Part shown: piece after piece, positions 2,023-46,837 of the stretch | Numbering within the stretch: position 1 is the stretch's first letter | Layout: each line of letters begins with the position of its first letter | DNA from: a virus | Virus record (IMG/VR): IMGVR_UViG_2925639251_000002 | Length of the DNA stretch: 64,000 nucleotides | Strand: one strand, 5' to 3' | Position numbers and translations under genes: made by a program | Notes under the pieces: generated by a model | The model's database searches: none | Told to the model about the DNA's origin: nothing | The model's input: the letters and a program-made list of their open reading frames with translations, nothing else

Positions 2023-2110
2023 ATTGTGTAATTTTCACTAAGGTAACAAAATTAAAATTAGTGGATAAAATGTAAGTTTTATCGAGATTCAAATTGGAGG
2101 GGGATATCAC

Positions 2111-2446
2111 TTGGAATTATCATTAGATGAATTGAAGCTCTATCTTAAACCATTAGTGTTTTTCGGTGAGTTAAAACTTGAAATCAGTGATTATGAAGAA
2201 GGTAAGAAAATTGAAGTGCTGGATCATGATGAAGGGTCTTTAATTAATTTAGAAGGCCAAACGATTAACGAAAATTATGTGTGTACTACATGTAATTGTA
2301 CTTTATATACCGATGAAAATAATGAAGTATGTTTCATAGAGCATCCGTATGGTGCAATCACAGCTGTAAATAAAGATCAAGTGATTCATTTAACTAAGCT
2401 AATTGGAGCAATCATAAATACGGATGAGGAGGATCCAGTTGAATGA
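2111..2446 (+). CDS. yopW: Phage protein YopW-like
   Basis: 111 aa, TTG start with RBS, synteny. Confidence 0.65.
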   Translation: MELSLDELKLYLKPLVFFGELKLEISDYEEGKKIEVLDHDEGSLINLEGQTINENYVCTTCNCTLYTDENNEVCFIEHPYGAITAVNKDQVIHLTKLIGAIINTDEEDPVE

Positions 2447-2913
2447 ACACAGCATACAGAGTTTGGGACGGCGAGCAGATGCATTTTTGGGATGATGAAG
2501 GACTGAGCCTTGAAATAAAAATGGATGAATGGATTTTATGGCGTGAAGAAGGAAAGGGGTGCAGGGTTAGTATCGCAGAAAGCGGAGACGGGGAATCCGT
2601 TCTCATGTGGGGCGCAGGGTTGAAGGATAAGAACGGAAAAATGATTTACAAAAAAGATATCCCTCGCGTATGGGAAGAGAACGAACATATTCCTAATTAC
2701 GATAGTGGAGGCGGCGTTATTGACTTTGACATAGTCGAAGGATTTTCACAATTAGGTATAGTCGACTTTAAAGGCGCTTGGTTTACTTACGAAACTAAAA
2801 AACATCAAAAGGGGAGAAAAGAAAATATTTTTGCGCCATTAGATTTTACAAGAAACTTGGAAGTTGTCGGCGACATATTTCAGAATCCTGAGTTATTGGA
2901 GGGCGCGGAGTGA
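2443..2913 (+). CDS. YopX-family protein
   Basis: YRVWD...GLKDKNGKMIYxxDI...EVVGDIFQNPELL motifs. Confidence 0.85.
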   Translation: MNTAYRVWDGEQMHFWDDEGLSLEIKMDEWILWREEGKGCRVSIAESGDGESVLMWGAGLKDKNGKMIYKKDIPRVWEENEHIPNYDSGGGVIDFDIVEGFSQLGIVDFKGAWFTYETKKHQKGRKENIFAPLDFTRNLEVVGDIFQNPELLEGAE

Positions 2914-3041
2914 TGAACGCAAATGACAAATTAGGTGCTTATGTCTTGCTGGCGATGCATGGATTCAAGAAAGATGAAATCAAGGACATTATGAAAAAGG
3001 TTGAGTCTGATTTGGAGAAAGCGAAGGAGGGCGCGGAGTGA
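2913..3041 (+). CDS. Small hypothetical protein (42 aa), not in the ORF track
   Basis: ATG overlapping upstream TGA; MNANDKLGAY...AKEGAE*. Confidence 0.65.
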   Translation: MNANDKLGAYVLLAMHGFKKDEIKDIMKKVESDLEKAKEGAE

Positions 3042-3223
3042 ATGACTTCCAAGAAAGAAAACAATTTTTAGAGAAGTACTATCAGGAGTTTAAGTCACTC
3101 CGAGAGATTAATCCTGCCACGTCTTTGGATGAAGCATTGTCATTGTTCTGTGTTGCATTTCCAGAAGCGGAGCCCCACAGAAACTATTTTTATCAAAGGA
3201 CTTTGAAGGAGGGTGCGGAGTGA
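3038..3223 (+). CDS. Hypothetical phage protein
   Basis: 61 aa ORF, translationally coupled. Confidence 0.65.
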
Positions 3224-3654
3224 GTATGAATTCTATTGATTTGCTATTTGAAGATAATATGAAACTAAACCAAAGAGAAAAGTTCCTCAAAAATGGTATT
3301 CCATATGATGAGCTTGATACACAAATGATTAATTTAATTGATATTTTAAATTTTAAGATGGGATTGAAAACACGTCATTGTTGTTTTGGGCATAAGCCAT
3401 ACGAAGAAATTCAAGTGATGTTTGAAGAAGAAGTGAATTTAAAAGAAGATCAAATTCTGGAATTAGCAGAATTAGCGGGAAGAGAATGGAAAGGTCTTCA
3501 ATTAAGCTTTAGCAAATGGGCGAGGTTTTCTCCGTTGATGTTTAATTGGTCATTGGTGCTATCGAAAAGGTTTAGAGATCCGGAAGATGCAAATAAATAC
3601 GGATACCTGAGATCAGTTGAAGAATTCTTTGAAAGCTATGCTGCAAAGAAGTGA
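3220..3654 (+). CDS. Hypothetical phage protein (SPbeta yoq block)
   Basis: 144 aa ORF upstream of the Rha gene. Confidence 0.7.
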
Positions 3655-3695
3655 TTAAAAGATGCATTTTAAACAAATTAAATGGAGGAACTTTA

Positions 3696-4451
3696 TTGGA
3701 AAATAATTTAAAGGTAATTGAGCAGAATGGGCAACTTTTAGTGGACAGTAGAGATGTAGCTGAGATGGTTGATAAAGAACATAAACATCTTCTTAGAGAT
3801 ATCGATGGATATTTAAAAATTCTAGGAGAGTCCAATTTTGGACTTACCGATTTCTTCATTGAGAGTACATATAAAACAAAGCAAAATAAGTCAGCGAAAC
3901 ATTTCTTCCTCACACGCAAAGGGTGTGATATGGTCGCTAATAAAATGACTGGTACTAAGGGAATAATCTTCACAGCACAATACGTTACTCGCTTTGAAGA
4001 GATGGAGAAGACATTAAAAACAAGACCTTTATTAGTTGATACATATCTAGACATGAATGAGGATGAAAGAGCAATAGCCTACTTCACTGAAAGAAAAGAG
4101 AAGCGAGAATATCAAGAGAGACTCAAGTTAGCTGAACCAAAAGTAGAGAAATATGATCGCTTTCTTAATACAGATGGATTAATGAAAATAGGACAAGTGG
4201 CAAAAGCGATTGGCATAAAAGGAATGGGTCAAAACAATTTATTTCGCTTTTTGAGAGAAAATAAAGTTCTTATTGATGGAACAAACAAAAACGCTCCATA
4301 TCAAAAATATGTAGAAAGAGGATTCTTTCAAGTGAAGACCCAGGAGACAAGTGTTGGAATTAAGACAATTACTCTTGTTACTCCTAAAGGTGCCGATTTT
4401 ATTGCTGATCTTCTAATGAAACATGGGCACAAAAGAGAAATAGCATCATAG
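3696..4451 (+). CDS. yoqD: Rha-family regulator with C-terminal ANT/KilAC-type antirepressor domain
   Basis: VDSRDVAEM...HKHLLRDI, LTRKGCDMVANKMTG; C-terminal AKAIG...LFRFLRE...PYQKYVERGFF; TTG start 3696 after GGAGG gives 251 aa. Confidence 0.8.
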   Translation: MENNLKVIEQNGQLLVDSRDVAEMVDKEHKHLLRDIDGYLKILGESNFGLTDFFIESTYKTKQNKSAKHFFLTRKGCDMVANKMTGTKGIIFTAQYVTRFEEMEKTLKTRPLLVDTYLDMNEDERAIAYFTERKEKREYQERLKLAEPKVEKYDRFLNTDGLMKIGQVAKAIGIKGMGQNNLFRFLRENKVLIDGTNKNAPYQKYVERGFFQVKTQETSVGIKTITLVTPKGADFIADLLMKHGHKREIAS

Positions 4452-4526
4452 ATTTGAAAACTTTTAGATAAAAGTAAAATTTTAAAGAGAAAGGAAGAGG
4501 AGAAATGATTAAAGGGATGGTTAAAC

Positions 4527-5479: not shown

Positions 5480-5521
5480 AATTAAAATAAAAAGACTGTT
5501 TTAAAGGAAGGGGAAAAACAT

Positions 5522-5812
5522 ATGAAGTTTAAAAATAAAAACTGCGATGAGATTCATGTTGAAATCAATGGGCAAAGAATTGATGTAAATTCACTTCAAG
5601 AAGGCAGTGTAACTCTAGAACGATATAAAAATATTAGAGCAAATTCTGATGGATTTGAAGCACTTTATCCCAAACTAAATGATGAAGCGCTTATACACGT
5701 TGCTAAGAACCACCTCAAGAACATCCTTTTAAAGAGAAAGCCAGTTACATATGAAGAGTCATTAGCAGCGTGTATTGCTCCAGAACTAATTAAACGATTG
5801 GAATTAAAATAA
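5522..5812 (+). CDS. Hypothetical phage protein
   Basis: 96 aa ORF with RBS. Confidence 0.65.
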   Translation: MKFKNKNCDEIHVEINGQRIDVNSLQEGSVTLERYKNIRANSDGFEALYPKLNDEALIHVAKNHLKNILLKRKPVTYEESLAACIAPELIKRLELK

Positions 5813-6000
5813 AAGTATTAATTTATGCTGAATGGAGGTCAAAAGGATAGGCTACATCAAATACGTAATTGAAATCGCCTGGTTTAACTTAGTTTGGTTT
5901 AAATGGCACCTTGGAGCGGACATAAGCATTTTTGACAGCTGCCGATGGAATACATATAAATGTATAAAGAATAAAAATAAAATAAGTGGAGGTTATTTGA

Positions 6001-6606: not shown

Positions 6607-6761
6607 GATGTCACCTCATCTAAATATTACTTGTGAAAATTTTACCAATGAAAATAGGTTTCTTCAATGTGATACGCTTTAAAATTAACTTAAAATCGTG
6701 ATTTTAAACAGAAATGAATACAAACTGTAGGTCTGACTTTTGATGCGAAGGGGGAGATAGG

Positions 6762-7019
6762 ATGAATAATATCACTTGGGAAGAAGCACAAAATAACAAT
6801 TATGGAATACAGACAATTGGCTTTAAAGATGATGAAAACTTCGGGAGAAGAATTGTCGGTTTTAACGATATTGTTGTAGGAGATAAAGTTAGGTGGAACA
6901 AAGATAATGTTGTGTATACTCTTGTTATGACTTCGAGATTGGGACACATAGGTCTTTCAACCACTGGACAATTACCTTATACAGTAACTGTTTATCCAAA
7001 TGAAATTACAAAGGAATAA
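6762..7019 (+). CDS. Hypothetical phage protein
   Basis: 85 aa ORF with RBS. Confidence 0.6.
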   Translation: MNNITWEEAQNNNYGIQTIGFKDDENFGRRIVGFNDIVVGDKVRWNKDNVVYTLVMTSRLGHIGLSTTGQLPYTVTVYPNEITKE

Positions 7020-7082
7020 TTAGGAAGGAAATTTAAATAAAAGATAGTTTTTAATGAAATCAAATTAATTGGAGGAATTTTA

Positions 7083-7838
7083 TTGGAAAATAACTTAACT
7101 GTAATTGAACAAGATGGACAACTTTTTGTGGATAGCCGAGAAGTGGCGGACATGATAGGAAAGAAACATTTTCATTTAACAAGAGATATTGAAGGTTACG
7201 TTCAAGTATTATCAACCAATCCAAATCTGGATTCGATGAATTTCTTCATTCAATCTACCTATATGGATGGAAAGGGAGAAGACCGTAAGCGTTATTTGCT
7301 TACACGTAAAGGCTGTGACATGGTTGCAAACAAAATGAATGGGGCTAAGGGAGTTTTGTTTACTGCGTATTATGTTACACGATTTGAACAAATGGAAAAA
7401 GAATTAAAACAACCACAAACAGAGTTAGAGGTTTTAGCTGCAACAGTTAACAATATGGTGCAACAAGAGAAACGAATAACTGTTATTGAAAATGAGCAAA
7501 AGAGAATCTTTGATTTGATCGGATTGAATCCGTCGAATTGGAGAAAAGAAATCAATAAAATTATTAGATTAATTGCAAAAGAAAGTGGATTAAGTCACTC
7601 GGTAATATGGTCTGAGAGTTACAAAACCTTAGAAAACCGAGGGAAATGTAATCTACAAAGAAGACTTGATAATAAAAGAAATAACATGAAAAAAGAGGGA
7701 GCGTCTAAAACAAAAGTAGAAAAAGCAAACTTTATGGATATTATTGATGAAGATCCAAAGCTTACAGAGATTTTCTTAGCGATTGTTAAAGATATGGCTG
7801 TGAAGTATAAGGTGACTCTAAAGAAAGAAACTACATAA
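7083..7838 (+). CDS. Second Rha-family regulator with a different C-terminal domain
   Basis: VDSREVADMIGKKHFHLTRDI...LTRKGCDMVANKMNG...YVTRFEQME. Confidence 0.8.
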   Translation: MENNLTVIEQDGQLFVDSREVADMIGKKHFHLTRDIEGYVQVLSTNPNLDSMNFFIQSTYMDGKGEDRKRYLLTRKGCDMVANKMNGAKGVLFTAYYVTRFEQMEKELKQPQTELEVLAATVNNMVQQEKRITVIENEQKRIFDLIGLNPSNWRKEINKIIRLIAKESGLSHSVIWSESYKTLENRGKCNLQRRLDNKRNNMKKEGASKTKVEKANFMDIIDEDPKLTEIFLAIVKDMAVKYKVTLKKETT

Positions 7839-7877
7839 AATATTTATTTTATCAAAATTAATTAGGAGGATGAAGTA

Positions 7878-10142: not shown

Positions 10143-10595
10143 ATGAGGGAAATTAAGTTTCGAGGAATGGGCATCAACGGAGAATGGTATTACGGCAATC
10201 TATCAATCATTAAGCAAAGAATCAAGAGCATGGGTATTGATCCTGGTTCTTATATCTCTAATAAAGCTGGGGTTCCATTTGCTTACAGTGTCAGGCCGGA
10301 AACAGTTGGGCAATACACCGGATTGAAGGACAAGAACGGTCTTGAGATTTACGAGGGGGATATTTTAAAAAGAACAGTCACGGTTGTCATGTATGGTTCA
10401 GGCAAACCACCTGAAGATATTGATGAATACATGAAAGTTGATTATCGAGAAGATTATGCGGGCTTCTATATCGGAGAAAGGCCACTGTTTGCTTATGTGG
10501 ACAATACTCGTGATGTCGATACTGGCTGCAGATGCACCAAAGCAGAAGTTATCGGCACCATTTACGAAGATCATAAGCTTATAGAGTCTAAATAA
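10143..10595 (+). CDS. YopX-family protein (second copy)
   Basis: MREIKFRG...ETVGQYTGLKDKNGLEIYEGDI...EVIGTIYE. Confidence 0.88.
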   Translation: MREIKFRGMGINGEWYYGNLSIIKQRIKSMGIDPGSYISNKAGVPFAYSVRPETVGQYTGLKDKNGLEIYEGDILKRTVTVVMYGSGKPPEDIDEYMKVDYREDYAGFYIGERPLFAYVDNTRDVDTGCRCTKAEVIGTIYEDHKLIESK

Positions 10596-10892
10596 AAACG
10601 ATACTTTATCGAGACAGGGGAATGTTTGTTTTTTAGTTATGTTGCTGAATAAGCATGTTAATAGGCAGTTAAAGCACATACAATGTCTGTTGATACAATG
10701 AGAATGAGTCTGAAAATAAAAAGCAGATACAGCAATACACAAACTATAATTAATGCTTTTATTGAATGGGTTGATTATATGAGTGGACAATTATGACAGA
10801 TTAGTTAAAAAGTATTATTTTATAGTTTAAATGGATATATATGGGGTAATAGCCGAATGTACACAAAATTTTATATTTGGAGGAGGATTACC

Positions 10893-12493: not shown

Positions 12494-12603
12494 AATTAGG
12501 GTGCTTTCTTTATAGCTTATCCATATAAAATGATAATTTTATTCGAATTAGAAAGATCGCAATGAAATACAAAAATAAAAAATATAAAAGTTTATAAAAC
12601 ATG

Positions 12604-12632
12604 TAGACAAAGATAAAAAATATGTATATAAT
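12604..12632 (+). promoter_or_regulatory. Early sigma-A-type promoter, SPBRE-like (TAGACA-N17-TATAAT with AAAATATGTAT)
   Basis: Near-identical elements at 28480-28508 and 42727-42758. Confidence 0.75.
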
Positions 12633-12664
12633 AAAATTAAGTTAAAGGGAAGGAGGCGAATTAC

Positions 12665-13036
12665 TTGGAGGTACTTGGGATAACAGAGAAGGCATTAAGC
12701 TATTACAGAGAAAACGTTAAAGGCAACAAGACAATTACTCCTGATCAAGCACTGTTAAAGATGATAAGGAATGTCTCACTTGTCAAAGAAACTCATCCTG
12801 AGCGAGTTAAAAAACGTTTATTCTTCACAGAGTATGCTTACGGAAACATGACAATCAAAGTTAACAGAAAAAAGCAGGTATTTGAAATTGTAAATAAGTC
12901 AGGATGCTTTTCTGACCAAAATGATTGGAAGTTCCCAAAAAGAAGGTACATAGAGCTTAGTAAAGAACTTGGAATCAAAGACTGCAAGTTTAGCAAAATT
13001 ACATATTCAAAGAAAAATCACAATAGACAAAAATAA
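12665..13036 (+). CDS. yorE: Phage protein YorE-like
   Basis: 123 aa, synteny. Confidence 0.7.
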   Translation: MEVLGITEKALSYYRENVKGNKTITPDQALLKMIRNVSLVKETHPERVKKRLFFTEYAYGNMTIKVNRKKQVFEIVNKSGCFSDQNDWKFPKRRYIELSKELGIKDCKFSKITYSKKNHNRQK

Positions 13037-13045
13037 AAATAGAGG

Positions 13046-13972
13046 ATGATTAAAAATATGACAGAAAACAAAACGGTATTACGTGAAGCATCAAACGTTG
13101 TAACACTTGAAGGAACTCTGGCAGAAGTAAGACACACTGAGTGGAAAAATGGAAATGGACTAAATATTGAATTAGATATTGAGGTTGCACCTAACGAAGT
13201 GCATACAGTTAAAGGCTTTTCAAAATATAAGAAAGCTGATGGTACAGATAATGCTATTGCAAAAGGGTATCAAACTATTATAAGTGACTATAAGTCCATT
13301 GCAGAACATGGGAGAGATCAAGCTGATAAAGTGAGAATCACCCAAGGGAAGATTGGATTAAATGAATATTACTCTCAAGGGATTTTAAAGGCGTATCCAC
13401 AGTTAACTACCAACTTTGTAAACAGACTCGATGCTAATGAAGAATTTAATCCTAAAGCTGAATTTGATGTTGAACTGTTTGTTAAAAATGTAACCGAAGA
13501 AAAAGTAAAAGGAGAAGAAACAGGAAGAGTTAATTTAAATGGTTATATCCCTTTGTATGGCGGGAAAGTCATTCCTTTTACATTTGTAGTGACTAAAGAA
13601 GGCTCTCAATATGTTGAAAACAATTATGAAAAAGGATCTACGGTAAATGTCTTCGGAAAGATTATTAATTATAAAGAACAAAAAGTAACAACCAAAACTG
13701 CTGCATTTGGAGAAGACAAAAAAGAAATCACCTCCATTACAAAAAGAGAGTATCTAGTTACAGGGGGGAACGATCCTTATGATGAAGATAGTAAAAATGC
13801 TTTTAATCCAGAAGTAATTAAAAAAGCATTGACTGAAAGAGAGACTTATCTAGAAGGACTTAAGAACGAAAGCAGCAATGAAAATAATAAAAAGTCTGGC
13901 TTTGGTGGAAGTGCTCCTAATAACAAGCCTTCAAAGCCGGTTGAAATTTCAGATGATGATCTCCCTTTCTAA
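13046..13972 (+). CDS. yorF: Putative single-stranded DNA-binding protein
   Basis: Acidic C-terminal DDDLPF tail; position in the replication cluster. Confidence 0.75.
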
Positions 13973-14054
13973 AATAAAATAGATCATTAATCTAATACAT
14001 ACCTGGGGTGAGCTCCGACTCACCCAACAAATTCAAAATAAAAGGAGAACTTAA

Positions 14055-15026
14055 ATGGCAATTGATATTTTCAACCCACAAGTTTCTGTAGTAGCAAAAG
14101 GATTAGAAGGAAAAGTTATCACAATCTACGGTTCTAACAACTTAGGTAAAACTAAGCAAAGCACTCGGATGAAGAAACCGTTATATCTGCCATTCGAAAA
14201 AGGATTAAATGCCATTGCCGGTGTCCAATTCATGCCTATCAATAGTTGGGCTGATTTTAAAAAGGTAAACAAGCAGTTAACCAAAAATGCTGAAAAAGCC
14301 AAAGAAATGTATCAGACAATCATTGTTGATGAAGTAGACGCTTTTGCTAAATATGCGACTAGATATGTATGCGAGCAATATGATGTAGAACGGATTAAAG
14401 ATGGTAATGATGGGTTTGGCCTTTGGAAAGAGTATGAAACTGAAGTATGGGAAGAAATCAATAAATTAATTGGCGTAGGATTTACGGTTATCTTTATTGC
14501 TCATGCTGCTGAAGACAAAAAAGGCAAAGTATATCCGAAGGGGGATAAACGAGTTTTAGCTCCAGTAATTGATAACAGCGATATTGTTCTTTATCTAAGT
14601 TCTAATGGTGTTGATGAAGATAGAAAAGTAATCAAATCAAGTGCTTGGTTAGCTGAAACTGAAGAGCATTTTGCTCGTAGCCGATTTGATTACATTGACA
14701 CATACCTTCCTGAATTTACTGCAGAAAACTTAGAAAAAGCAATTATTGAGGCAGTCGAAAGACAGGAGCAAGCAGAAGGAATTGTCGCTGTTACATACGA
14801 AGAGCAAAAACAAAACAACGCTTCAGAAGAACTTGATTTCAACTCATTAATGGATCAAATTAAAGAAATTGGCATGAAGCTTAATGAAGAAGGCCGTTTA
14901 GAAGAAGTTAATGAGATTACAGAGAAACATTTAGGTAAGGGTGTAAAAGTTACTGAGTGCAGCCGTAAGCAAGTAGGTGTCATGTCTGTAATTCTAGATG
15001 ATCTAAAAGACCTTCTAGCAGAATAA
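14055..15026 (+). CDS. yorG: AAA/Sak4-like ATPase (putative recombinase)
   Basis: Walker A-like GSNNLGKT, Walker B IIVDE; 323 aa. Confidence 0.8.
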   Translation: MAIDIFNPQVSVVAKGLEGKVITIYGSNNLGKTKQSTRMKKPLYLPFEKGLNAIAGVQFMPINSWADFKKVNKQLTKNAEKAKEMYQTIIVDEVDAFAKYATRYVCEQYDVERIKDGNDGFGLWKEYETEVWEEINKLIGVGFTVIFIAHAAEDKKGKVYPKGDKRVLAPVIDNSDIVLYLSSNGVDEDRKVIKSSAWLAETEEHFARSRFDYIDTYLPEFTAENLEKAIIEAVERQEQAEGIVAVTYEEQKQNNASEELDFNSLMDQIKEIGMKLNEEGRLEEVNEITEKHLGKGVKVTECSRKQVGVMSVILDDLKDLLAE

Positions 15027-15068
15027 AAGAGGAGGGATTATTCTCTCCTCCTTATTAGGAGTGATTAT

Positions 15069-15539
15069 TTGGGGAGACAAGTTAAATGTCCTTATTGCGA
15101 GACCAAGTTAGACAAAGACTCAGCAATTCCTTATAAAAAAAGATATTACCATGAAAAGTGTTTTAATACATGGAAGCAAGAATCAGATCACAGAAAAGAG
15201 TTAATTCAATACATATGCAATCTATATGGTCTTACATCTCCAACTGGCATGATGTTGAAACAAATTAAAGAGTATCAAGAGGAATATGGGTATAAGCTTA
15301 AAGGCATTGAGCTAGCACTTAGGTACTTTTATGAAACTTTGGATAATCAACCCAGAGAAGGAGATGGCATTGGAATCGTTCCATTTGTTTATGATGAAGC
15401 AAAGCGGCATTACATTAGACAAAAAGCCATTCGAAAATCAGCTGAAGACCCAAAGAATCATAAAAGAGAAGAAATTACGTTAGTCATAAAAAAAGGAATG
15501 AGAAAGAAAAGAGGGCTAGTTGATATCTCAACGCTATAG
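15069..15539 (+). CDS. yorH: Zn-binding replication protein
   Basis: CPYC...HEKC; 156 aa, synteny. Confidence 0.7.
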   Translation: MGRQVKCPYCETKLDKDSAIPYKKRYYHEKCFNTWKQESDHRKELIQYICNLYGLTSPTGMMLKQIKEYQEEYGYKLKGIELALRYFYETLDNQPREGDGIGIVPFVYDEAKRHYIRQKAIRKSAEDPKNHKREEITLVIKKGMRKKRGLVDISTL

Positions 15540-15553
15540 GAAGGAGAGTCCAT

Positions 15554-17068
15554 TTGCTACAAGACAAACAGGCAATAATTCAAGTTTTAGGGAGCATTTT
15601 AAAAGATCCCACAATCTTGTCAGAGAGCAATAAATATAAGATAACTTCGGATGATTTTCCTTCAAGGTTTCATTCAATATTATTTTTTGCCATGAGCAAC
15701 CTATTTCATCAAGGAACTGAAGTATTGAATGACGTTGAAATAGATGGATATCTAAAGGATTACGATATTCAATATAAAATTTTCCATGATAATAAGGGTC
15801 TTGAATATATAGAAAAAATACAAGAGTTGGCAGTTGTCGAAAATTTTGATTACCACTATAAAAGATTAAAAAAGTTTAGTCTGCTTAGAGAAATGGATGG
15901 CTTGGGATTCGATATTAAGGAAATATATGATGAATCTCTGATTGACCCAAAAGAACAAGAAAAGATGCAAGAACAGTTTGATAAGAAGTCGATTGATGAA
16001 ATTTTGACAGCTTATGAAATGAAGATTGTAAACATAAAAGAAAAATTCAGAACTTCATCTGAAAGTGTGGGAATCCAGGGTGGAGAAGGTATTAATGAAT
16101 TATTGGATTCATTCGAAGAGTCGCCGGATATTGGAGTTCCATTAAATAGCGAAATGCTTACTTCAATTTTTCGGGGATCACGGAAGAAAAAGTTCTATCT
16201 GCGCTCAAGTATTACAGGTGGCGGTAAAACAAGAAACATGGTCGCTGACGCTTGTCGCTTAAGTGCAACCGAACTTTATGATCCTAAAAAGAAGGAATGG
16301 GTATCAAACCCATGGAGTGAAAGTTCTACGGTTATTTCAACAGAAATGATGGCCGAAGAATTGCAAAGCTTAGCACTTGCCTACATTAGTGGTGTAGAAG
16401 AGAAAAAAATCCTTAGAAACACAATCAATGAACAAGAAAAACAACTTGTGCGTAAGGCTGCTAAAGTTCTTCAAGAGTCTAACATATGGTTCGAACATCT
16501 GCCTGATTTTAATATTCAGGAGATTGAAAGAACAATTGAAAAGAACGTCATTAAAAACAATGTAGAGTACGTTTATTTCGATTATATTCACTCATCAGTA
16601 ACCATTTTTTCAGAGATGAGCAAAAAAAGTGGGGTCAACTTGAGGGAAGACCAAATTCTTTTACTTATGTCGGATAAGTTAAAGGGCTTATGTAACAAAT
16701 ACGATGTCTATATGATGAGTGCAACTCAGTTGAATGGTGATTGGAAAGAAGCATGGTTAAAAGGACAAGTAATAGATGCTTCTTACTTGAGAGGAAGTAA
16801 GGCCATTGCAGATAAAACAGATGCTGCAATGATAATTCTTCCTTTAAGTAAAAAAGAGAAGGATGCAATTGATCCAATCTTAAAAGAAGGATTTTATCCA
16901 GAGCCAAATTTTGTTACACATGTATTTAAAAATAGGGGAAATGAGTATGACAAAGTTAAAGTCTTTTCTCATATCAATATGGGCAACATGCGGATTAAGG
17001 ACTGTTTCACAACAAATCTTGACAATGAATTAATCACAGTTGAGAAATTGAATATAAAAGCAGGATGA
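15554..17068 (+). CDS. yorI: DnaB-like replicative helicase
   Basis: Walker A TGGGKT, VYFDYI, ATQLN, DKTD motifs. Confidence 0.88.
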   Translation: MLQDKQAIIQVLGSILKDPTILSESNKYKITSDDFPSRFHSILFFAMSNLFHQGTEVLNDVEIDGYLKDYDIQYKIFHDNKGLEYIEKIQELAVVENFDYHYKRLKKFSLLREMDGLGFDIKEIYDESLIDPKEQEKMQEQFDKKSIDEILTAYEMKIVNIKEKFRTSSESVGIQGGEGINELLDSFEESPDIGVPLNSEMLTSIFRGSRKKKFYLRSSITGGGKTRNMVADACRLSATELYDPKKKEWVSNPWSESSTVISTEMMAEELQSLALAYISGVEEKKILRNTINEQEKQLVRKAAKVLQESNIWFEHLPDFNIQEIERTIEKNVIKNNVEYVYFDYIHSSVTIFSEMSKKSGVNLREDQILLLMSDKLKGLCNKYDVYMMSATQLNGDWKEAWLKGQVIDASYLRGSKAIADKTDAAMIILPLSKKEKDAIDPILKEGFYPEPNFVTHVFKNRGNEYDKVKVFSHINMGNMRIKDCFTTNLDNELITVEKLNIKAG

Positions 17069-17083
17069 GGGGTGTAGCGCCCT

Positions 17084-18220
17084 TTGAAGTATGATAAAGA
17101 CAGAGTAAAAGAAAGCCTGACCATTGAGGATATACATAAGATTTTAAAAGACTTAGGTAGCGAGAACAATCAGTGGGATCAACAAGGAAATCCGATTTAC
17201 AGAACTGTTTGTCACAATGCTTCTGGTGGGAGCTATAAGCTGTATTACTATCATGAAGCAAAACAGTTTCACTGTTATACAGAGTGTGGAGATAATTTTG
17301 ATGTATTTGAACTTGTTATAAGAGCAAAAAGTCAAAAAGGTATTAATATCTCTTTTAATCAGGCTATCGAATATGTTGCCAAAATAGCAGGAAGAACATT
17401 TGGATTTGGGAATAGAGAGACATACATAAACAATGATTTGATTGATGACTGGGAATGGATGGGGAAGTTCAAAAAGAAGAAAAAAATACATATTGAGCTC
17501 CCCAGCTTTAATGAAACGGTTCTAGATGTATTTGTGCCTTATCCTCACCAATTGTGGCTAGGTGAGGGAATAAGTCACAAGACATTAAAAGAGTTTGAGA
17601 TTGGGTACTATTTTAGACCTCATACAGAAGGGATTACCATTCCTCATCGAGATTTAAATAATAGGTTGATTGGTATACGTAGGCGCTCAATGATTAAAGA
17701 AGAAGTAGATGCAGGCTATAAATATATGCCTTTAAAAGTTGGCAATACCTTATATAACCATCAAACAATGATGAATCTATATGGATTACATAAAACAAAA
17801 AATTCGATAGAAAGGTTCAAGAAAGTATTGATTTTCGAATCAGAAAAATCAGTATTAAAATGCCAAGATTTTTACGGTGAATCAAACTTTACCTGTGCTG
17901 TTTGTTCAAGTAATATATCTAATTTTCACCGGGACATTTTATTGTCTCTTGGTGTTGAAGAAGTTTTTATTGCTCTTGATAAATACCGACCACCAAAAGA
18001 ACATGAAACAGAGGAGAAATATCAAGAAAAATTGGTTGAATATCAGAAGAAAATTCTAAAGCTCGCAGCAAAATTTACTCCTTATGTTCGTGTGTATGTT
18101 TTGTGGGATTATGAAGGCTTACTGGATTATAAGGACAGCCCAGCTGACAAGGGAAAGGAAACTCTAGAGGAGCTAATGAGAAGGAAAATTGAGATTGGCA
18201 CAGATGAAGGGGGAATTTAA
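17084..18220 (+). CDS. yorJ: DNA primase
   Basis: Zn finger CH...HCYTEC; TOPRIM FESEK...ALD. Confidence 0.85.
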   Translation: MKYDKDRVKESLTIEDIHKILKDLGSENNQWDQQGNPIYRTVCHNASGGSYKLYYYHEAKQFHCYTECGDNFDVFELVIRAKSQKGINISFNQAIEYVAKIAGRTFGFGNRETYINNDLIDDWEWMGKFKKKKKIHIELPSFNETVLDVFVPYPHQLWLGEGISHKTLKEFEIGYYFRPHTEGITIPHRDLNNRLIGIRRRSMIKEEVDAGYKYMPLKVGNTLYNHQTMMNLYGLHKTKNSIERFKKVLIFESEKSVLKCQDFYGESNFTCAVCSSNISNFHRDILLSLGVEEVFIALDKYRPPKEHETEEKYQEKLVEYQKKILKLAAKFTPYVRVYVLWDYEGLLDYKDSPADKGKETLEELMRRKIEIGTDEGGI

Positions 18221-19950: not shown

Positions 19951-19962
19951 GGGGGAAGAAAG

Positions 19963-23890: not shown

Positions 23891-24625
23891 ATGATAGGAG
23901 AGATGAAAATTTTCAAAAAACTTATAGACAAACACAAAAAATATGTATATCATAGAATTAACGAAATGACACTTTTTGCTACAATTGGTTTGTTAGGAGT
24001 AGGGCTCGTATATAGCGCTAAAAACTTGTATACACATCAGGACAATCAAGTCTCAATAAAAGAGTCATTTTATCTAAATAAAAAAGAGGTGACCCAAAAA
24101 CTAATTCATGAAATTGACGTTCCAAGAATCCTTCCCAGGCTAAAGAGTGAGGAAGAAAAGCAGGCTGAAAGTAGAAAAAAGTATCTTAATGCGACGATTA
24201 CATATCTAACAGAAGAAAATAAAAAAGCAGCAAAACATACAAAAACAAAAAAAGTGCAAAAAATTAATAAAAAGAGAAGTGAAGATAACCCAGCTTCAAA
24301 AAGTACTAATGTAAAGGCAGTGAAGAGTCATGAAGTGATTGCCACTGCTTACACAGCGTTTTGTTCTACAGGGTGCATAGGGAAAACAAAAACCGGCTAT
24401 GATGTATCAAACACATCCTATTACAATGGAAAAAGAATAATCGCTGTTGATCCAGAAATAATTCCTTTGTATTCATTAGTGCAAGTTTCATATGAAGGGA
24501 ATAGCTTTCAAGCATATGCAATAGATACAGGAGGAGATATTAAAAACAATCGAATTGATATTCTATTGGACAGTGAGCAAGAAGCAAATGCATTTGGTCG
24601 TAAAAATGTAAGAGTGAGCTGGTAA
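23891..24625 (+). CDS. yorM: 3D-domain (cell-wall) protein
   Basis: ATAY, IAVDPEIIPL, AIDTGGDIKNNRIDI; N-terminal TM helix. Confidence 0.85.
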   Translation: MIGEMKIFKKLIDKHKKYVYHRINEMTLFATIGLLGVGLVYSAKNLYTHQDNQVSIKESFYLNKKEVTQKLIHEIDVPRILPRLKSEEEKQAESRKKYLNATITYLTEENKKAAKHTKTKKVQKINKKRSEDNPASKSTNVKAVKSHEVIATAYTAFCSTGCIGKTKTGYDVSNTSYYNGKRIIAVDPEIIPLYSLVQVSYEGNSFQAYAIDTGGDIKNNRIDILLDSEQEANAFGRKNVRVSW

Positions 24626-26019: not shown

Positions 26020-26027
26020 GGGAATTT

Positions 26028-26546
26028 ATGAAAAAAGTAATTGCAATTGACATGGATCAGGTCTTAGCTGATTTACTAAGTGATTGGGTAGCTAACATTA
26101 ACACACACGATGATCCTTTTCTCAAAGAGGAGGACATCCTGTGCTGGGATATAAAAAAATATACAAATACCAACAATAATGTTTATAGACATTTAGATTA
26201 CAATTTGTTCAGAAATCTTAATGTTATAGAAGGCAGCCAAAGAGTAGTAAAAGAGCTGATGAAGAAATATGAAGTATATGTTGTGACTACTGCAACAAAC
26301 CATCCAGAGTCCCTTAAAGCAAAGCTTGAATGGCTTACTGAGCATTTTTCTTTTATCCCACATAGCAATGTAGTGCTTTGTGGCAATAAAAGCATAATTA
26401 AAGCAGACATCATGATAGATGACGGAATACATAACTTAGAATCATTTGAAGGAATGAAGATTCTATTTGATGCTCCCCATAACAGGAATGACAACAGATT
26501 TATTCGTGTTATGAACTGGGAAGAGATTGAACGAAAATTACTTTAA
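26028..26546 (+). CDS. yorS: 5'(3')-deoxyribonucleotidase (HAD family)
   Basis: IAIDMDQVLAD, IDD motifs. Confidence 0.88.
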   Translation: MKKVIAIDMDQVLADLLSDWVANINTHDDPFLKEEDILCWDIKKYTNTNNNVYRHLDYNLFRNLNVIEGSQRVVKELMKKYEVYVVTTATNHPESLKAKLEWLTEHFSFIPHSNVVLCGNKSIIKADIMIDDGIHNLESFEGMKILFDAPHNRNDNRFIRVMNWEEIERKLL

Positions 26547-26577
26547 AATATCTCATTTATCCAGAAAGGAGAAAACA

Positions 26578-26697
26578 GTGGAACGTTTTATTAAAAGACT
26601 GTCAGCTTCTTGTGAGTCAACAATTCATCACAAGGTTTATCAAATTATGAACGAAGCAAAAACAGAGTTTGAAAAAGTGCTAAAGAAATTAAAATAA
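26578..26697 (+). CDS. Small phage protein YorT-like (39 aa)
   Basis: AAGGAG RBS + GTG; synteny. Confidence 0.55.
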   Translation: MERFIKRLSASCESTIHHKVYQIMNEAKTEFEKVLKKLK

Positions 26698-26780
26698 AAG
26701 ATCAATTTTATAGAAAGGAGACAGAGGATATTTCAGAAGAACATAAAAACAAAATAAATAAAAATAAATTCACAAAATTT

Positions 26781-27380
26781 GTGACGGTTTCAAATTCACC
26801 AACATGCCAAAAACTCTTGAAGGATTTAGAAGAAACGTTTAAGAGCATGGCAAATTGTTTGGTACTTATAAAGACATCTCAACCAGTAATAAGTGATAAT
26901 TATTATGTTGAACATCAAGAAATTCTAAACTATCATTTAGAGTTCTTCTTAATTAAATATTCAACCATTCTTGACCAACAATTGCTGATTTGTAATGCTG
27001 CCTTAAAGCTGGGATTTAAGGAGAAACAATGCAAATTAAATCATTTGAAATTTAAAAGGGCTATGAAAAATTCATCTAGAGCGTTACACAAAATGTTTTG
27101 TGAACATAAAAAACAATTTTTATATGAATCTCATTTAAGGAATAGGATTGTGCATCAGGGGCCTATTCATTACCCCACTCTAGAAGTTTTAAAAATATTT
27201 AATTCATTTGTTACGTCATCTGACTTGATTACTGAACATAACGGTACTCTTATTCAGGAATTTCAAGGGGTTGAAACATTGCGAAAAGAGTTAGAAGATA
27301 AACTAAATAAGGCAGTTAAATATAATAATGATCTTCTTAACTTACTTTTCTCTGAGCTAAATAACAAGAATACTAGATAA
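26781..27380 (+). CDS. Putative HEPN-domain protein (may start at ATT 26730)
   Basis: Rx4H motif RNRIVH preceded by FLIKYSTILD; all-helical character. Confidence 0.6.
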   Translation: MTVSNSPTCQKLLKDLEETFKSMANCLVLIKTSQPVISDNYYVEHQEILNYHLEFFLIKYSTILDQQLLICNAALKLGFKEKQCKLNHLKFKRAMKNSSRALHKMFCEHKKQFLYESHLRNRIVHQGPIHYPTLEVLKIFNSFVTSSDLITEHNGTLIQEFQGVETLRKELEDKLNKAVKYNNDLLNLLFSELNNKNTR

Positions 27381-27423
27381 AATTTGTCTTTTATACAAAT
27401 ATAAAATAAGAGGAGTGTATTGA

Positions 27424-28289: not shown

Positions 28290-28472
28290 ATTAAGGATAT
28301 TGTAAGAGATCTTGTTATTGATGACATTGATGCTGCCGAAGGAGTATTAGATAAACTCTATGTTTATTTAGAAAACACTTTAAGGCCTGAAGAAAAGCGT
28401 GTTTGGGAGCGGTGTGATAAAGATATAATATCTGTTTTTGCAAAGCTGAAAAATATTAAAGAAATTATTTAA
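28290..28472 (+). CDS. Small phage protein (60 aa) with putative ATT start
   Basis: GGGGAGG RBS then ATT AAG GAT...; open to TAA 28472. Confidence 0.55.
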
Positions 28473-28532
28473 AAACCGATAGACAAATATAAATAATATG
28501 TATATAATAAATTTACATTAAGGCAAAGGAGA

Positions 28533-28751
28533 GTGTTAATGAATCATATATGTGACATCTGTAAAGAGTACATAAGCGGAAAAACAATTTGTCTTAGGAT
28601 CAGCGATGAAAAAACTTATGTAGACTTCAATTGTTGTGAAGGTTGTGCAAAGGGTTATTCCGATAAAGTGAAAAATGAATGCAGCAATTTAAGTGTTAAG
28701 AAGACATTAGAACATTTAGGATTAAATAACAAATACAAAATAAGAGGATAA
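28533..28751 (+). CDS. Cys-rich phage protein (YorZ-like)
   Basis: CxxC...CCxxC; downstream of an early promoter. Confidence 0.6.
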   Translation: MLMNHICDICKEYISGKTICLRISDEKTYVDFNCCEGCAKGYSDKVKNECSNLSVKKTLEHLGLNNKYKIRG

Positions 28752-28785
28752 AATATTCCTTTTATCGAGAATGGAGAGATGATGA

Positions 28786-29622: not shown

Positions 29623-29904
29623 AAATTAATTTCCCGGGCAAGCGCAGTATGCGACAAATCAAAACAAATAACGAGGAGTGACATGGTGCAATTTGCAATT
29701 AATATTCTTGAACTCATCGGTCTTTTGTTGATTGGACTTGTATCATTAGATACATATGGATCGAAAAGGAGAATAAAACCTCAAATCGCTTTTGGAATAT
29801 TAGTTATAGCTGGAATGTCATTCTTAACCGGTTTGGGTTTATTGATTATAAGTAATATCTAAATAAAATTCAATTTTTATAGAGACTTTTAAGGAGGTGA
29901 ATAA

Positions 29905-30674: not shown

Positions 30675-30950
30675 GGAGGCACTCATGATGACTAATGATA
30701 ATGCTGCAAAGATTATTTTAAAAAAGAAATCAACTGGTGAAATAGTCGGCGAAATGAAAGTTACACCTTTACCTGCTGACACCATTTTGCAAACCGACAA
30801 TAAGTCTAAATAAAAGTTTTATTCTATTGAAACATTAATAGTGGATATTGGATCAAGTTCAAGCATCGTCGAAAAAATACAAACAAAAAATGTTCATATA
30901 GGGATTAACTATAACTAGAATTTCTAAAAATCAAAGTTGAAATAGGTGAT

Positions 30951-31739: not shown

Positions 31740-31844
31740 TCCAGCAAAGAAGAATGCATGTTGAACACCTAAGACTGAGGAAGGGCACCGCCAAATTATA
31801 AATTTAAGTAAAAGGATGATTTTAAAGAAAGTGGAGGAAAGCCC

Positions 31845-33273: not shown

Positions 33274-33668
33274 TGATCATTACATATGAGAGTAAAACTG
33301 GCAATGTAAGAAGGTTTGTAAAAGCGTTGCAACAAGAGCTAGACATTGAGGCAATTGAAATAACTGATGATACGATCATCAATCAAGAGTTCATACATAT
33401 TACATATACGATAGGCTTTGGGGAAGTGCCTGAAAGGACTTTGAGTTTTATCAAAAAGAATAAAAATAAAATTAGAGGAGTTGTTGTTAGTGGTAACAAG
33501 GTTTGGAGTGATAACTATGGTTTAGCTGGAGACAAGCTTTCGGCTAAGTTCCACATTCCATTGTTATTAAAGTTTGAACTTAGTGGAACGAAACAAGACT
33601 TAGAGAAGATCATTCAGGAGGTAAAACTTATTGACAAACACAATACCAAAGTGGATCAAGCTCAATAA
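33273..33668 (+). CDS. nrdI: Class Ib RNR flavodoxin NrdI
   Basis: YESKTGNVRRF, TIGFGEVP, SGNKVW, KFELSGT. Confidence 0.92.
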   Translation: MIITYESKTGNVRRFVKALQQELDIEAIEITDDTIINQEFIHITYTIGFGEVPERTLSFIKKNKNKIRGVVVSGNKVWSDNYGLAGDKLSAKFHIPLLLKFELSGTKQDLEKIIQEVKLIDKHNTKVDQAQ

Positions 33669-39035: not shown

Positions 39036-39084
39036 TCAATAAAAGGGTAATTTTAATCAAATTTAAATTAAAAGGAGCTAATAA

Positions 39085-40217: not shown

Positions 40218-40326
40218 GTTTTCAATGTTATGAGGATGCTCCTAGAGGTTTCCTCATAACAAATATCAATTTAAATTAGAAAATAAAGAATACTTTTATC
40301 TAAAATCAATAAGGAGGAAAGAGAAC

Positions 40327-42739: not shown

Positions 42740-42863
42740 AAAATATGTATAATATAATAACAAGAGGTTGATGAAATAACAGTTTTTTATTTAAAATACA
42801 AAAACAAAAAATATGCATTTTGATAAAACTAATATTTTATTCAAACTTTAAGGAGGTGATTTA

Positions 42864-43967: not shown

Positions 43968-44143
43968 CGTATCATAGACGCCTGAAGACGACGGTGTTTA
44001 AAAAGTATAGCGGATATGATTGGACTTACGACGGAATGTTTGAAAAAACAAGAGTGAAAGGCAGTGATAAAAGAAAACGATCGAAACATGAGCGAACAAT
44101 CCGAAAAGTTATGGATAAAAAAGAAATTAGTTATTACTTTTAA
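43964..44143 (+). CDS. Small basic protein (59 aa), not in the ORF track
   Basis: GTGA overlap with upstream stop; MTYHRRLKTTVFKK... Confidence 0.5.
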   Translation: MTYHRRLKTTVFKKYSGYDWTYDGMFEKTRVKGSDKRKRSKHERTIRKVMDKKEISYYF

Positions 44144-44306
44144 ATTAATATAAAATCTGTATTTTAAAGAGAAGGTGCTGCAGTGAAAGAGTCGTTGAAG
44201 AATGATTTTCAAGAGTTTATGAGTATTGCAAAAAGCTTTCTTGCTGTTTCTGGAGCAGTCTTTTGGTTATTGATAATTTCACTTGTTTTTGCTGGGGGCT
44301 ATTAAA

Positions 44307-44956: not shown

Positions 44957-45292
44957 TTGTCACATTCATTTTCAATAGTTCTTAGCAAGAAGCTTCCCTT
45001 ACGAATGTTGATTAAACGTTGTGAAATCGACTTCAATATACAATTAGATAGACATAAACAAGTAATGGGATTCTCCTCTGGGGTACACGAAGACCTTGGT
45101 TTATTTCTAACTATAAGTTCAAGACAAATTGACTTTCGCTTTTTAAATAGTCAAAAATTCGTGGAAGCTCTCGGAAAAGTTGAGCAATTTATCGAAAAGC
45201 AATTCCATGATGAGACTGTAGGAGTTATTTATCATGACAACATGACAAGATTAAAAGATATTCCTACAATCAAAATTATTAATCTGAGTTAG
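44957..45292 (+). CDS. Hypothetical phage protein
   Basis: 111 aa, TTG after AGGGGG. Confidence 0.6.
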   Translation: MSHSFSIVLSKKLPLRMLIKRCEIDFNIQLDRHKQVMGFSSGVHEDLGLFLTISSRQIDFRFLNSQKFVEALGKVEQFIEKQFHDETVGVIYHDNMTRLKDIPTIKIINLS

Positions 45293-45498
45293 GTAGAGGT
45301 GAGTAAGCTCTAAAAAAAGAAGGTGATTAAGTTAAAAGAGTATACACATGGGTTTTTAAATGGGTTTTTATACGGTTGTATTTTTATACTAGCTTTCCTG
45401 TCTATTACAGTCGTTTTTGTTTTGTGTGTTGCATGCGGCGGCTATTCAATTTAAGGAAAATAAAATTCTAATTTTATTGAGAAGGGAATGACTCCTTT

Positions 45499-45720
45499 AT
45501 GTATGGAGAAGATGTTGAAGTTACACTAGATGGAAACATTAAGGTGAAAGTGTTTGTATTTTGCCTGCCTACCACATGTAAAGAGGAAAAAGAAAAGAGA
45601 GCACTATTAACTCTAAAAAATCTAATAGATAAAAGGTTGAAGAATGAGGATCTAAAATATTTGGATGTGCAAAGTGATTTTGTTTTAATTCCTAAAATGA
45701 TTGAAAACGGGGAGTTTTAA
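45499..45720 (+). CDS. Hypothetical phage protein (yot block)
   Basis: 73 aa ORF. Confidence 0.55.
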   Translation: MYGEDVEVTLDGNIKVKVFVFCLPTTCKEEKEKRALLTLKNLIDKRLKNEDLKYLDVQSDFVLIPKMIENGEF

Positions 45721-45722
45721 TT

Positions 45723-46082
45723 TTGAATAAGAGAATAAAGAAGAAGATTCGAAACAAGGTTGAATCATGGATTATTTTTAAGAATCCTAACGGGTCATAT
45801 AATTCACTGGGTGTAAACAAGTTTGGAGAAGTACCTTCACATGCACGTCCTTTGTATCCTGAATATAAAACCCTAGGAGAGGTCTTAAATTCATTCCCTA
45901 AAGGATTTTACTTTCCTTTGGTTGAGTTGGCAAAAGAAGAAGAAAACATGTTATTCTTTGATCATTATCCTACAGAGTACGGTGGCTGGCAAACAGGGAA
46001 TAGGGACGTATGGGGCATTTGGGGACAGAGATACTTATTGAAAAAGGTATCGGACGGGTGTTGTGAATACGTGTCCAGATAA
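45723..46082 (+). CDS. Hypothetical phage protein
   Basis: 119 aa ORF. Confidence 0.6.
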   Translation: MNKRIKKKIRNKVESWIIFKNPNGSYNSLGVNKFGEVPSHARPLYPEYKTLGEVLNSFPKGFYFPLVELAKEEENMLFFDHYPTEYGGWQTGNRDVWGIWGQRYLLKKVSDGCCEYVSR

Positions 46083-46114
46083 AATGTTGATTTTATTTAG
46101 AAAGGGGGACGAGG

Positions 46115-46792
46115 ATGGACAATTACCTACAAATACTTGACCAAGTTAAATCAATAGAAATGTCATTAACAACAAAGGAATTCACTGTTCAGATGATAAG
46201 TGATTACTTCGAAGTCCCTGAAGATACAATTAAGACAGTATTGAAAAGGAACATGAAAATAATACAGCAATATTCAGAAATAAGAACAGTTGAAATGAAA
46301 AAATTGAAACAGGAAGCAGCAATTTTTCAGTCGCCCAAATTTAAAAAAGTAAGAAGGCTATCCTTAGTTAATATATACGGTTTACTTAGAATAGGATTAC
46401 TTTTACGGAACAGCATTATCGCAAGACAATTTCAGAAAAACGTTGGGCATCTTGAATTACCAGAAAGATTTACAGATGTAGTGATTGGTAATGCAGAATA
46501 TAAAGCAAAAGAGAAAAAGTTAGGGGCGTTTATCAGTACAGCTTTTAAAGACGTATTCAGTATTGAGGAACAAGTGAAGTGTGGAACTTACTATATTGAT
46601 TATGTCATTGAAGAGAAGGTTGCTATTGAATGTGATGAGCATGGACATAAAAGTTATTCGAAACACAAAGAATTGGTTAGAGAAGAGTACATAAAAAGAA
46701 AAGGTTATAAGTTAATTAGATTTAATCCAGATAGTGAGGATTCAGTATTTGAGCTAATCAACAGAGTCTTTCTGGCATGTAAAACTACATAA
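46115..46792 (+). CDS. Putative DNA-binding domain fused to DUF559/Vsr-like endonuclease
   Basis: C-terminal YYIDYVI...AIECDEHGH...REEYIKRKGYKLIRFNPD. Confidence 0.7.
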   Translation: MDNYLQILDQVKSIEMSLTTKEFTVQMISDYFEVPEDTIKTVLKRNMKIIQQYSEIRTVEMKKLKQEAAIFQSPKFKKVRRLSLVNIYGLLRIGLLLRNSIIARQFQKNVGHLELPERFTDVVIGNAEYKAKEKKLGAFISTAFKDVFSIEEQVKCGTYYIDYVIEEKVAIECDEHGHKSYSKHKELVREEYIKRKGYKLIRFNPDSEDSVFELINRVFLACKTT

Positions 46793-46837
46793 AATCGGTC
46801 TTTTATTTAGAATAAAAATAAAATTAGTGGAGGTATT

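Follow-up and report, generated by a model that had tools for sequence, protein, structure and literature searches.

Dozens of short intergenic sites are found in the temperate cluster A mycobacteriophages, whose stoperators are asymmetric 13-mers that are uniform across positions; to our knowledge, stoperators have not been reported as mosaic junctions. Here we analyze another repeated phage element, the 16-nucleotide (nt) palindrome TAAAA-N6-TTTTA, in a 64,000-nt stretch of viral DNA (IMG/VR record IMGVR_UViG_2925639251_000002; the entire stretch is hereafter denoted the window). The starting point was a prediction, made from the sequence alone, that these palindromes mark the junctions of accessory genes and are either integron-like cassette boundaries or repeated operator or RNA-processing sites (hereafter, the original prediction). 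Literature searches, the original 1999 SPbeta genome paper aside, did not recover a description of this motif.

In its layout, with a 6-bp centre between inverted arms, the element resembles the dif and pdif sites, and pdif modules of Acinetobacter plasmids (PMC6449649) are similar also in that many short sites bracket accessory genes at module boundaries. However, the pdif arms are 11 bp long, asymmetric (XerC/XerD) and similar to host dif, whereas the arms of the phage sites are symmetric, with weakly conserved, clade-specific outer positions; furthermore, the phage sites have position-specific centres that are conserved across genomes, and the modules between them hold their order. The palindrome is not a copy of host dif itself, ACTTCCTAGAA-TATATA-TTATGTAAACT, in which the inner arms are TAGAA and TTATG rather than TAAAA and TTTTA. 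With integrons, the array shares promoter-less single-gene cassettes, palindromic borders and a suspected tyrosine recombinase. The attC sites, however, span 57-141 bp, conserve a fold rather than a sequence, and recombine as single strands into one attI, whereas the phage palindromes are strict 16-bp sequences at fixed, spacer-coded positions, with no attI/Pc platform; an attC-like folded structure was rejected given the exact 16-bp palindrome and the lack of an excess of compensatory arm changes.

The promoter(early) stem-loop (PeSL) elements of T4-type phages (PMC2839356) are short intergenic repeats of the plastic parts of a large phage genome that, as observed here, coincide with points of insertion, deletion and replacement of non-essential genes. 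These elements combine a promoter and a terminator in ~50-70 bp, are uniform across positions and support homology-based recombination also within a genome (mini-circles); in contrast, the SPbeta site has 16 bp, no consistent -35/-10 elements, no G+C stem (5 A-T pairs) and a different centre at each position. A parallel in principle is the engineered exchange between heterospecific lox or FRT sites, in which the arms are identical, the spacers differ and like recombines with like, so that an unlike pair swaps its cassette and cannot delete it; that system, however, is man-made and has a known enzyme, whereas here the principle is inferred from comparative data only. Within SPbeta, a likewise repeated intergenic element has been described, the SPbeta repeated element (SPBRE), which is 15 bp long, A-rich and non-palindromic, occurs at ~10 promoters and is bound by MrpR (YopR), a protein with a tyrosine-recombinase fold (PMC10516654). 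The palindrome is not the SPBRE/MrpR operator: the sequences differ, SPBc2 contains 34 palindromes compared to ~10 SPBRE, MrpR peaks are at SPBRE promoters only, and at window positions 12526 and 42824, SPBRE-type elements lie beside, not inside, the palindromes. The distinction between the two elements drawn in the original prediction is thus upheld by both sequence and copy number.

The palindrome array of SPbeta-like and other Firmicute phages

Bases 1 to ~50,200 of the window represent the right arm of an SPbeta-like Bacillus prophage, from the end of yopR/mrpR to the recombination unit, with the genes on the + strand and blocks that are 95-99% identical to SPBc2, Goe13, Goe14 and phi3T; the prophage does not extend over the remainder of the window. 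The window contains 24 perfect copies of TAAAA-N6-TTTTA, compared to 0.95 expected under dinucleotide-preserving shuffles (maximum 4), the control that had been proposed along with the original prediction. In the genome of a Bacillus subtilis 168-like strain (4.2 Mb), 34 of the 65 copies are located inside the 134-kb SPbeta, a 33-fold enrichment, and in a blind count of all 5-N(4-8)-5 palindromes, TAAAA with a gap of 6 ranks far first in both the window and SPBc2. As an observation, the array is both real and strong.

All 19 perfect copies listed in the original prediction were recovered, each between a stop codon and the next ribosome-binding site, with ten invariant arm positions and a variable 6-nt spacer. 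The four near copies reported there (5810, 10593, 30811 and 40284) proved to be genuine decayed sites with one arm mismatch each, except for 40284, which has a 1-nt deletion in the left arm. In seven cases, the TAA of the motif is indeed the upstream stop codon, in agreement with the open reading frame (ORF) ends at 5812, 7838, 26697, 27380, 28751, 46082 and 46792, and both Rha genes, the HEPN gene and the DUF559 gene (families confirmed by Pfam) each lie between two copies. What did not survive is the absence of the palindrome, noted there from a visual scan, from the replication block and from the DNA outside the prophage: five copies in coding DNA had been overlooked (395, 16881, 24057, 27107 and, past the prophage end, 57286), none with a junction context, along with the decayed copy at 26544. 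The sites in the window are as follows (all junction sites and decayed sites are on the + strand; the in-coding copies are given without strand).

2066..2081, +: perfect site, spacer TGTAAG; phi3T homology begins at 2065
3656..3671, +: site, spacer GATGCA; left border of the Rha/ANT cassette 3696-4451; Goe13 and Goe14 homology begins at 3656
4469..4484, +: site, spacer GTAAAA; right border of the Rha/ANT cassette; homology blocks stop at 4490-4499
5488..5503, +: site, spacer AGACTG; 16-mer shared by 5 phages that differ in its surroundings (3 flank types on the left, 4 on the right)
6691..6706, +: perfect site, spacer TCGTGA; identical 16-mer outside SPbeta in the 168-like chromosome (G001), at 2060716
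7038..7053, +: site, spacer GATAGT; left border of the second Rha cassette, 7083-7838
7836..7851, +: site, spacer TATTTA; TAA is the Rha stop codon
12526..12541, +: site, spacer TGATAA; left edge of the conserved replication block; 14-kb block of SPBc2, Goe13 and Goe14 begins at 12525
26695..26710, +: site, spacer GATCAA; left border of the HEPN cassette (mtbP slot of SPbeta); SPBc2 block stops at 26711
27378..27393, +: site, spacer TTTGTC; right border of the HEPN cassette; contigs from three public runs part from the window at 27377
28749..28764, +: site, spacer TATTCC; SPBc2 block stops at 28765; address also at laboratory junction N1
29864..29879, +: site, spacer TTCAAT; phi3T block stops at 29880; contig joint at 29864
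31809..31824, +: site, spacer GGATGA; contig joint at 31809
39040..39055, +: site, spacer GGGTAA; Goe13 block begins at 39039
42824..42839, +: site, spacer CTAATA; immediately 3' of an SPBRE-type promoter element; phi3T block begins at 42823, Goe13 block and a contig both stop at 42843
44151..44166, +: site, spacer TCTGTA; blocks begin at 44143-44146; contig begins at 44153
45461..45476, +: site, spacer TTCTAA; phi3T block stops at 45488
46080..46095, +: site, spacer TGTTGA; left border of the DUF559 cassette 46115-46792
46790..46805, +: site, spacer TCGGTC; right border of the DUF559 cassette; SPBc2 block begins at 46789
5810..5825, +: decayed site with ATTTA as right arm; its TAA terminates ORF 5522-5812
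10593..10608, +: decayed site, right arm CTTTA, address ACGATA; right border of the slot that holds gad2 in SPbetaL7
26544..26559, +: decayed site with ATTTA as right arm; phi3T has a perfect copy
30811..30826, +: decayed site with TTCTA as right arm and address GTTTTA; SPBc2, Goe13, Goe14 and phi3T have perfect copies
40284..40298, +: decayed site with the left arm shortened by one A to TAAA and address GAATAC; SPBc2, Goe13 and phi3T have perfect copies
395..410: in-coding copy within the yopR/mrpR-like coding sequence; probably incidental
16881..16896: in-coding copy within the helicase (yorI-like) coding sequence; probably incidental
24057..24072: in-coding copy within the yorM-like coding sequence; the sole copy with a spacer that varies between phages (GAGTCA or AAGTCA)
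27107..27122: in-coding copy within the HEPN gene; probably incidental
57286..57301: in-coding copy past the prophage end, within ORF 56711-57904; outside the array

The site is sharply defined: there are 23 perfect copies compared to 10 one-mismatch copies, and four of these 10 are decayed junction sites. The outer positions of the spacer favour T/G and A/C in a strand-symmetric manner, the composition of the core is strand-symmetric as well, and the base at -1 is mostly A. Arm changes that keep the palindrome (compensatory changes) are at chance level, with 5 among 69. The sharp definition, the symmetry and the chance-level covariation suggest that the arms act as sequence in double-stranded DNA that is read by something symmetric, rather than as a hairpin. 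Beyond the motif, the right flank in the SPbeta clade follows the pattern W-W-S-A-R-A; other clades have a different extension, and the extension moves with the downstream cassette.

Several known signals were considered and rejected. A sigma-A promoter does not fit because 11 of the 19 sites lack a -35/-10 pair and the others match at most 9 of 12 positions, owing to the TAAAAT of the motif itself. With regard to the YonO promoter, the motif is missing from the mapped start upstream of yonK, and arrays are present in phage Tsamsa, Geobacillus phage E3 and Clostridioides difficile phage AR1086-1, in which YonO is not detectable. The ComK box (A4-N5-T4, paired) was dismissed because only gap 6 is enriched and gap 5 is not, and a host signal was dismissed because, outside SPbeta, the motif occurs at background density in the 168-like genome.

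The array extends beyond Spbetavirus. The metagenomic phage genomes G003 and G004, which show no nucleotide similarity to SPBc2 or to each other, contain 56 and 46 copies, respectively, and the motif outnumbers a reversed-pattern control in Tsamsa (23 vs 3), Geobacillus E3 (30 vs 7) and C. difficile AR1086-1 (26 vs 4). In each of these phages, 0-15 nt separate the site from a Shine-Dalgarno sequence downstream of it, and in many cases the preceding stop codon comes immediately before the site. No convincing array was found in Lactococcus phage WRP3 (8 vs 3) or in a Staphylococcus 'SPbeta-like' phage (17 vs 8, mostly without a junction context), and a search for an alternative palindrome in these two phages was negative. 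The upstream regions in WRP3 are rich in extended -10 promoters, and those in the Staphylococcus phage are rich in an A-rich GAAATAAAATA word.

Conserved spacers and exchanged flanks

The feature of the site that the original prediction overlooked is that the spacer, although different from site to site, is conserved at each position and so resembles an address. When spacers were compared by anchoring on the homologous flank, that is, without conditioning on the presence of a site, there were 0 spacer changes at intergenic orthologous sites, compared to a 5.5% base difference in the flanks; at the rate of segregating columns in the flanks (6.4%), ~8 changes would be expected in the 21 site families. 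The arms at orthologous sites show six independent decay events. Conversely, spacers do not recur within a genome. We analyzed six genomes without mutual nucleotide similarity (SPBc2, G003, G004, Tsamsa, Geobacillus E3 and C. difficile AR1086-1) and found 0 within-genome repeats among 215 sites, in both orientations, where 5.3-7.3 pairs would be expected (P 0.001-0.005). A spacer that is kept between genomes and avoided within them is the pattern expected if identical sites recombine efficiently.

To map homology breaks, the window was compared to SPBc2, Goe13, Goe14 and phi3T using blastn, which yielded 84 distinct boundaries of homology blocks. Fifteen of these boundaries are within 12 nt of a site, and nine are within 2 nt (P ~9e-10 under a uniform non-coding null), which is the outcome of the breakpoint test on aligned SPbeta-like genomes that had been suggested with the original prediction. 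The 14-kb replication block shared with SPBc2 spans positions 12525-26711, from site to site, and in contigs from four public runs, the similarity to the window breaks at 27377 (three runs), 29864, 31809, 42843 and 44153. At syntenic sites, the 16-mer, including the spacer, is identical in all compared phages, and the left and right flanks change independently, starting from the first base beyond the motif. The same edge is apparent within the window itself, where the mutual homology of the two Rha paralogues begins at the right edge of the left site of each.

A scan of IMG/VR with the GATCAA 16-mer retrieved ~30 SPbeta-like contigs, in which the flank types next to this site number at least 11 on the left and at least 8 on the right; two types from each side occur in all four combinations, which implies repeated crossovers within the 16-mer. 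Exchanges were observed only at sites with the same spacer, and one case of cassette loss between sites with unlike spacers was identified (SPBc2 87599 vs phi3T 5891).

Junctions formed in the laboratory provide a further comparison. In an evolution experiment with B. subtilis that carried SPbeta and phi3Ts, Dragos et al. (bioRxiv 10.1101/2020.05.06.055103) determined the sequences of hybrid phages and of extrachromosomal phage DNA, and Suppl. Table 1 of that work gives 17 unique SPbeta x phi3Ts junctions; the junction coordinates match the 168-like genome, in which the boundary at 2164642 was reproduced exactly. Junction 7 is a 30-bp segment (2217003-2217032 in the 168-like genome, 62417-62446 in phi3Ts) centred on a shared TGCATA site, with 21 identical nt and unrelated flanks. 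N1, the only junction classified as 'non-homologous', has its end at 2170033, a single base beyond the edge of the SPbeta TATTCC site. Two of the 17 events thus fall in ~0.5 kb of site sequence as against ~75 kb of long homology, which is more than would be expected from length-proportional homologous recombination, albeit in small numbers. At N1, the entire SPbeta site is retained, and 14 nt of phi3Ts (MT366945, 107383-107396) next to its own site are missing; these 14 nt contain ATAAAAT, that is, the left arm plus one base on either side, so a half-site-like microhomology may have been used at this junction. The phages SPbetaL1-8 are natural isolates rather than laboratory hybrids and accordingly were not used as a real-time test. 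With homology breaks at the motif edges, independent flanks and laboratory joints, the cassette-boundary part of the original prediction is strongly supported, whereas membership among integron-like sites is not, given the lack of an attC-type structure.

Candidate recombinase and alternative explanations

The explanation that we favour is that the 16-mers are address-coded crossover sites for a conservative exchange of cassettes that would leave the gene order undisturbed; on the comparative evidence, we consider the chances that it is correct to be about even. A sequence-specific homodimeric enzyme would bind both fixed arms and exchange strands over the spacer; most likely, this would be a tyrosine-type recombinase, with the YomM-type and YopP-type paralogues as candidates. 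Only sites with the same spacer would be productive partners, so that exchange would occur at equivalent positions of co-resident genomes, be they two phages or a phage and a prophage. Two adjacent exchanges would swap a cassette, as in engineered cassette exchange with heterospecific lox sites, and unlike spacers inside one genome would block deletions and inversions. Somewhat more tentatively, these phages might be seen as the natural counterpart of recombinase-mediated cassette exchange, that is, a lineage of Firmicute siphoviruses with 20-55 heterospecific sites per genome in which the barcodes would define ordered slots, so that phages and prophages in one cell could trade individual genes, including those for anti-defence, with precision and with the genome order intact.

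SPbeta integrates by means of a serine recombinase and additionally encodes the tyrosine-recombinase-like proteins YopP and YomM, along with the repressor MrpR. Two tyrosine-recombinase paralogues are encoded in each of the eight phage genomes compared, and every one of the six array phages keeps the nucleophilic Tyr. YomM is among just seven SPBc2 proteins that could be detected in G003 as well as in G004; the YomM homologs of G003, G004, Tsamsa and the C. difficile phage possess a complete catalytic set (R-K-H-R-H/W-Y). YopP-type proteins of SPbeta, Tsamsa, WRP3 and the Staphylococcus phage contain H-x-x-K instead of H-x-x-R and retain the Tyr. The YomM-type gene is located next to the tape-measure gene in the tail module across large Firmicute siphoviruses, including the lactococcal 949 group.

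A number of observations weigh against the crossover-site explanation or against these enzymes. In both YomM and YopP of SPbeta, Lys replaces the second catalytic Arg; YopP is not detectable in G003 and G004; and both paralogues are encoded also by the two phages without a convincing array, WRP3 and the Staphylococcus phage. In an all-against-all clustering of the proteins from the eight genomes, which would miss small, fast-evolving DNA-binding proteins, no family was shared by all six array phages yet missing from the other two. A tyrosine recombinase is therefore a candidate by opportunity, not by correlation. The conserved arm is only 5-7 bp long, compared to 11-13 bp in the known arms of tyrosine-recombinase sites. 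Among the breaks themselves, about four fifths of the homology boundaries are not at sites, 15 of the 17 laboratory junctions are in long homologies (400 bp to 20 kb), and N1 is imprecise in phi3Ts, 15 nt from the site with the same address. Finally, the distance to the Shine-Dalgarno sequence of the following gene is short in every clade, with the site 0-18 nt upstream, a placement that would also suit an expression signal.

Such a signal could be the operator of a dimeric phage DNA-binding protein, acting as a stoperator-like roadblock or silencer or as an activator, that doubles as microhomology: Sak4/YorG-type annealing or RecA recombination would use the palindrome because it is the sole sequence common to unrelated cassettes, and the junctions would be a by-product. 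The 5-6-5 geometry is that of classical helix-turn-helix dimer operators, the half-sites are symmetric without covariation, the motif keeps its place just before the ribosome-binding site in all clades, no recombinase family tracks the array, and the 21-nt identity at junction 7 is compatible with short-homology recombination. Nevertheless, we regard this explanation as unlikely, if worth serious consideration. Operators are mostly degenerate, whereas here the perfect copies outnumber those with one mismatch, and a dimer operator leaves unexplained both the stronger conservation of the spacer than of the arms and the uniqueness of spacers within a genome. Moreover, the peaks obtained by chromatin affinity precipitation sequencing (an assay that covers MrpR alone) are only at the 10 SPBRE promoters (PMC10516654), and the one or two of the 17 laboratory junctions at sites exceed the length-proportional expectation.

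Alternatively, the sites could be cut by a sequence-specific phage nuclease or nickase, with the breaks prompting local repair from a co-resident relative. The sharp, nuclease-like definition of the site and the many HNH and other nucleases of these phages are compatible with such cutting, and N1, which is imprecise on one side and carries a whole site on the other, would fit a break beside the site followed by microhomology joining. We find this scenario improbable, however, given that self-cutting at 30-55 places demands protection or tight control, that cutting alone does not account for the identity of spacers across phages, and that there is no candidate enzyme common to all array phages. 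Least probable of all is that UAAAA-N6-UUUUA forms an RNA hairpin in the 5' leader of a cistron, as a translational operator or processing site only secondarily linked to mosaic junctions: the motif is always near, and co-oriented with, the next ribosome-binding site, and the right flank in the SPbeta clade has a fixed A-R-A three to five bases past the motif, but a stem of 5 A-U bp is very weak, compensatory arm changes are not above chance and the core composition is strand-symmetric, the right-flank extension is clade-dependent and moves with the downstream cassette, and the spacer persists when the downstream gene is replaced, which implies that the element is not part of the leader of that gene. 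Both break-stimulated repair and a role in RNA are less likely than a crossover site or an operator. The operator or RNA-processing alternative of the original prediction accounts for neither the conservation of the spacers nor their uniqueness.

Accessory-gene slots and implications for phage evolution

SPbeta-like phages have been reported to possess a 'dedicated anti-Gabija locus' (bioRxiv 10.1101/2023.05.01.538930). In SPbetaL7 (L184, positions 1212-2479), gad2 is located exactly between a CAGAGA site and an ACGATA site, and both TAAs double as stop codons. In Goe13 and Goe14, different genes precede the ACGATA address, which in SPBc2 comes directly after yoqX and in the window is decayed (10593) and located after a YopX-family gene. 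The published anti-Gabija locus is one addressable slot. At window positions 26695-27393, the methyltransferase slot of SPbeta is occupied by the HEPN gene.

Outside SPbeta, the 168-like chromosome contains copies of the palindrome at 2060231 and 2060716 with spacers equal to those at window positions 7038 and 6691, respectively, which suggests, judging from these shared addresses, that the 6691-7038 cassette is common to the phage of the window and a defective prophage region of the host. Past the prophage end, positions 56000-60000 of the window form a second low-G+C island (32-34% G+C), which includes the copy at 57286 within an ORF of 397 amino acids.

Other repeats were observed around the array. 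A second A-rich repeat (~AGAATAAAAATAAAATTA) adjoins several sites, at window positions 46806-46832 and 2040-2062 and in phi3T (L005) at ~33600-33632 and 46735-46765; in phi3T, the AGAATAAAAATAAAATTA-type element directly abuts the next site, as would result from the loss of a cassette. Words of a related type (AAATAAAATA) are over-represented ahead of the ribosome-binding sites of Geobacillus E3 and of the Staphylococcus SPbeta-like phage. In addition, window positions 12570-12655 and 28441-28531 form an internal 77%-identical repeat, which spans the SPBRE-type promoter regions that precede the yorE-like and yorZ-like genes.

The mosaicism of phage genomes is usually ascribed to rare illegitimate or homologous exchange combined with selection. 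If the palindromes indeed are address-coded crossover sites, the barcoded sites would represent a built-in mechanism of modular evolution in a model phage that has been studied well, which would explain why fixed 'loci' of SPbeta-like phages hold different accessory and anti-defence genes and would suggest a role for the YomM and YopP paralogues. Cargo and counter-defence genes could then be found as the content between two sites, and the sites themselves would be a possible source of short heterospecific recombination sites for the engineering of Gram-positive bacteria and their phages.

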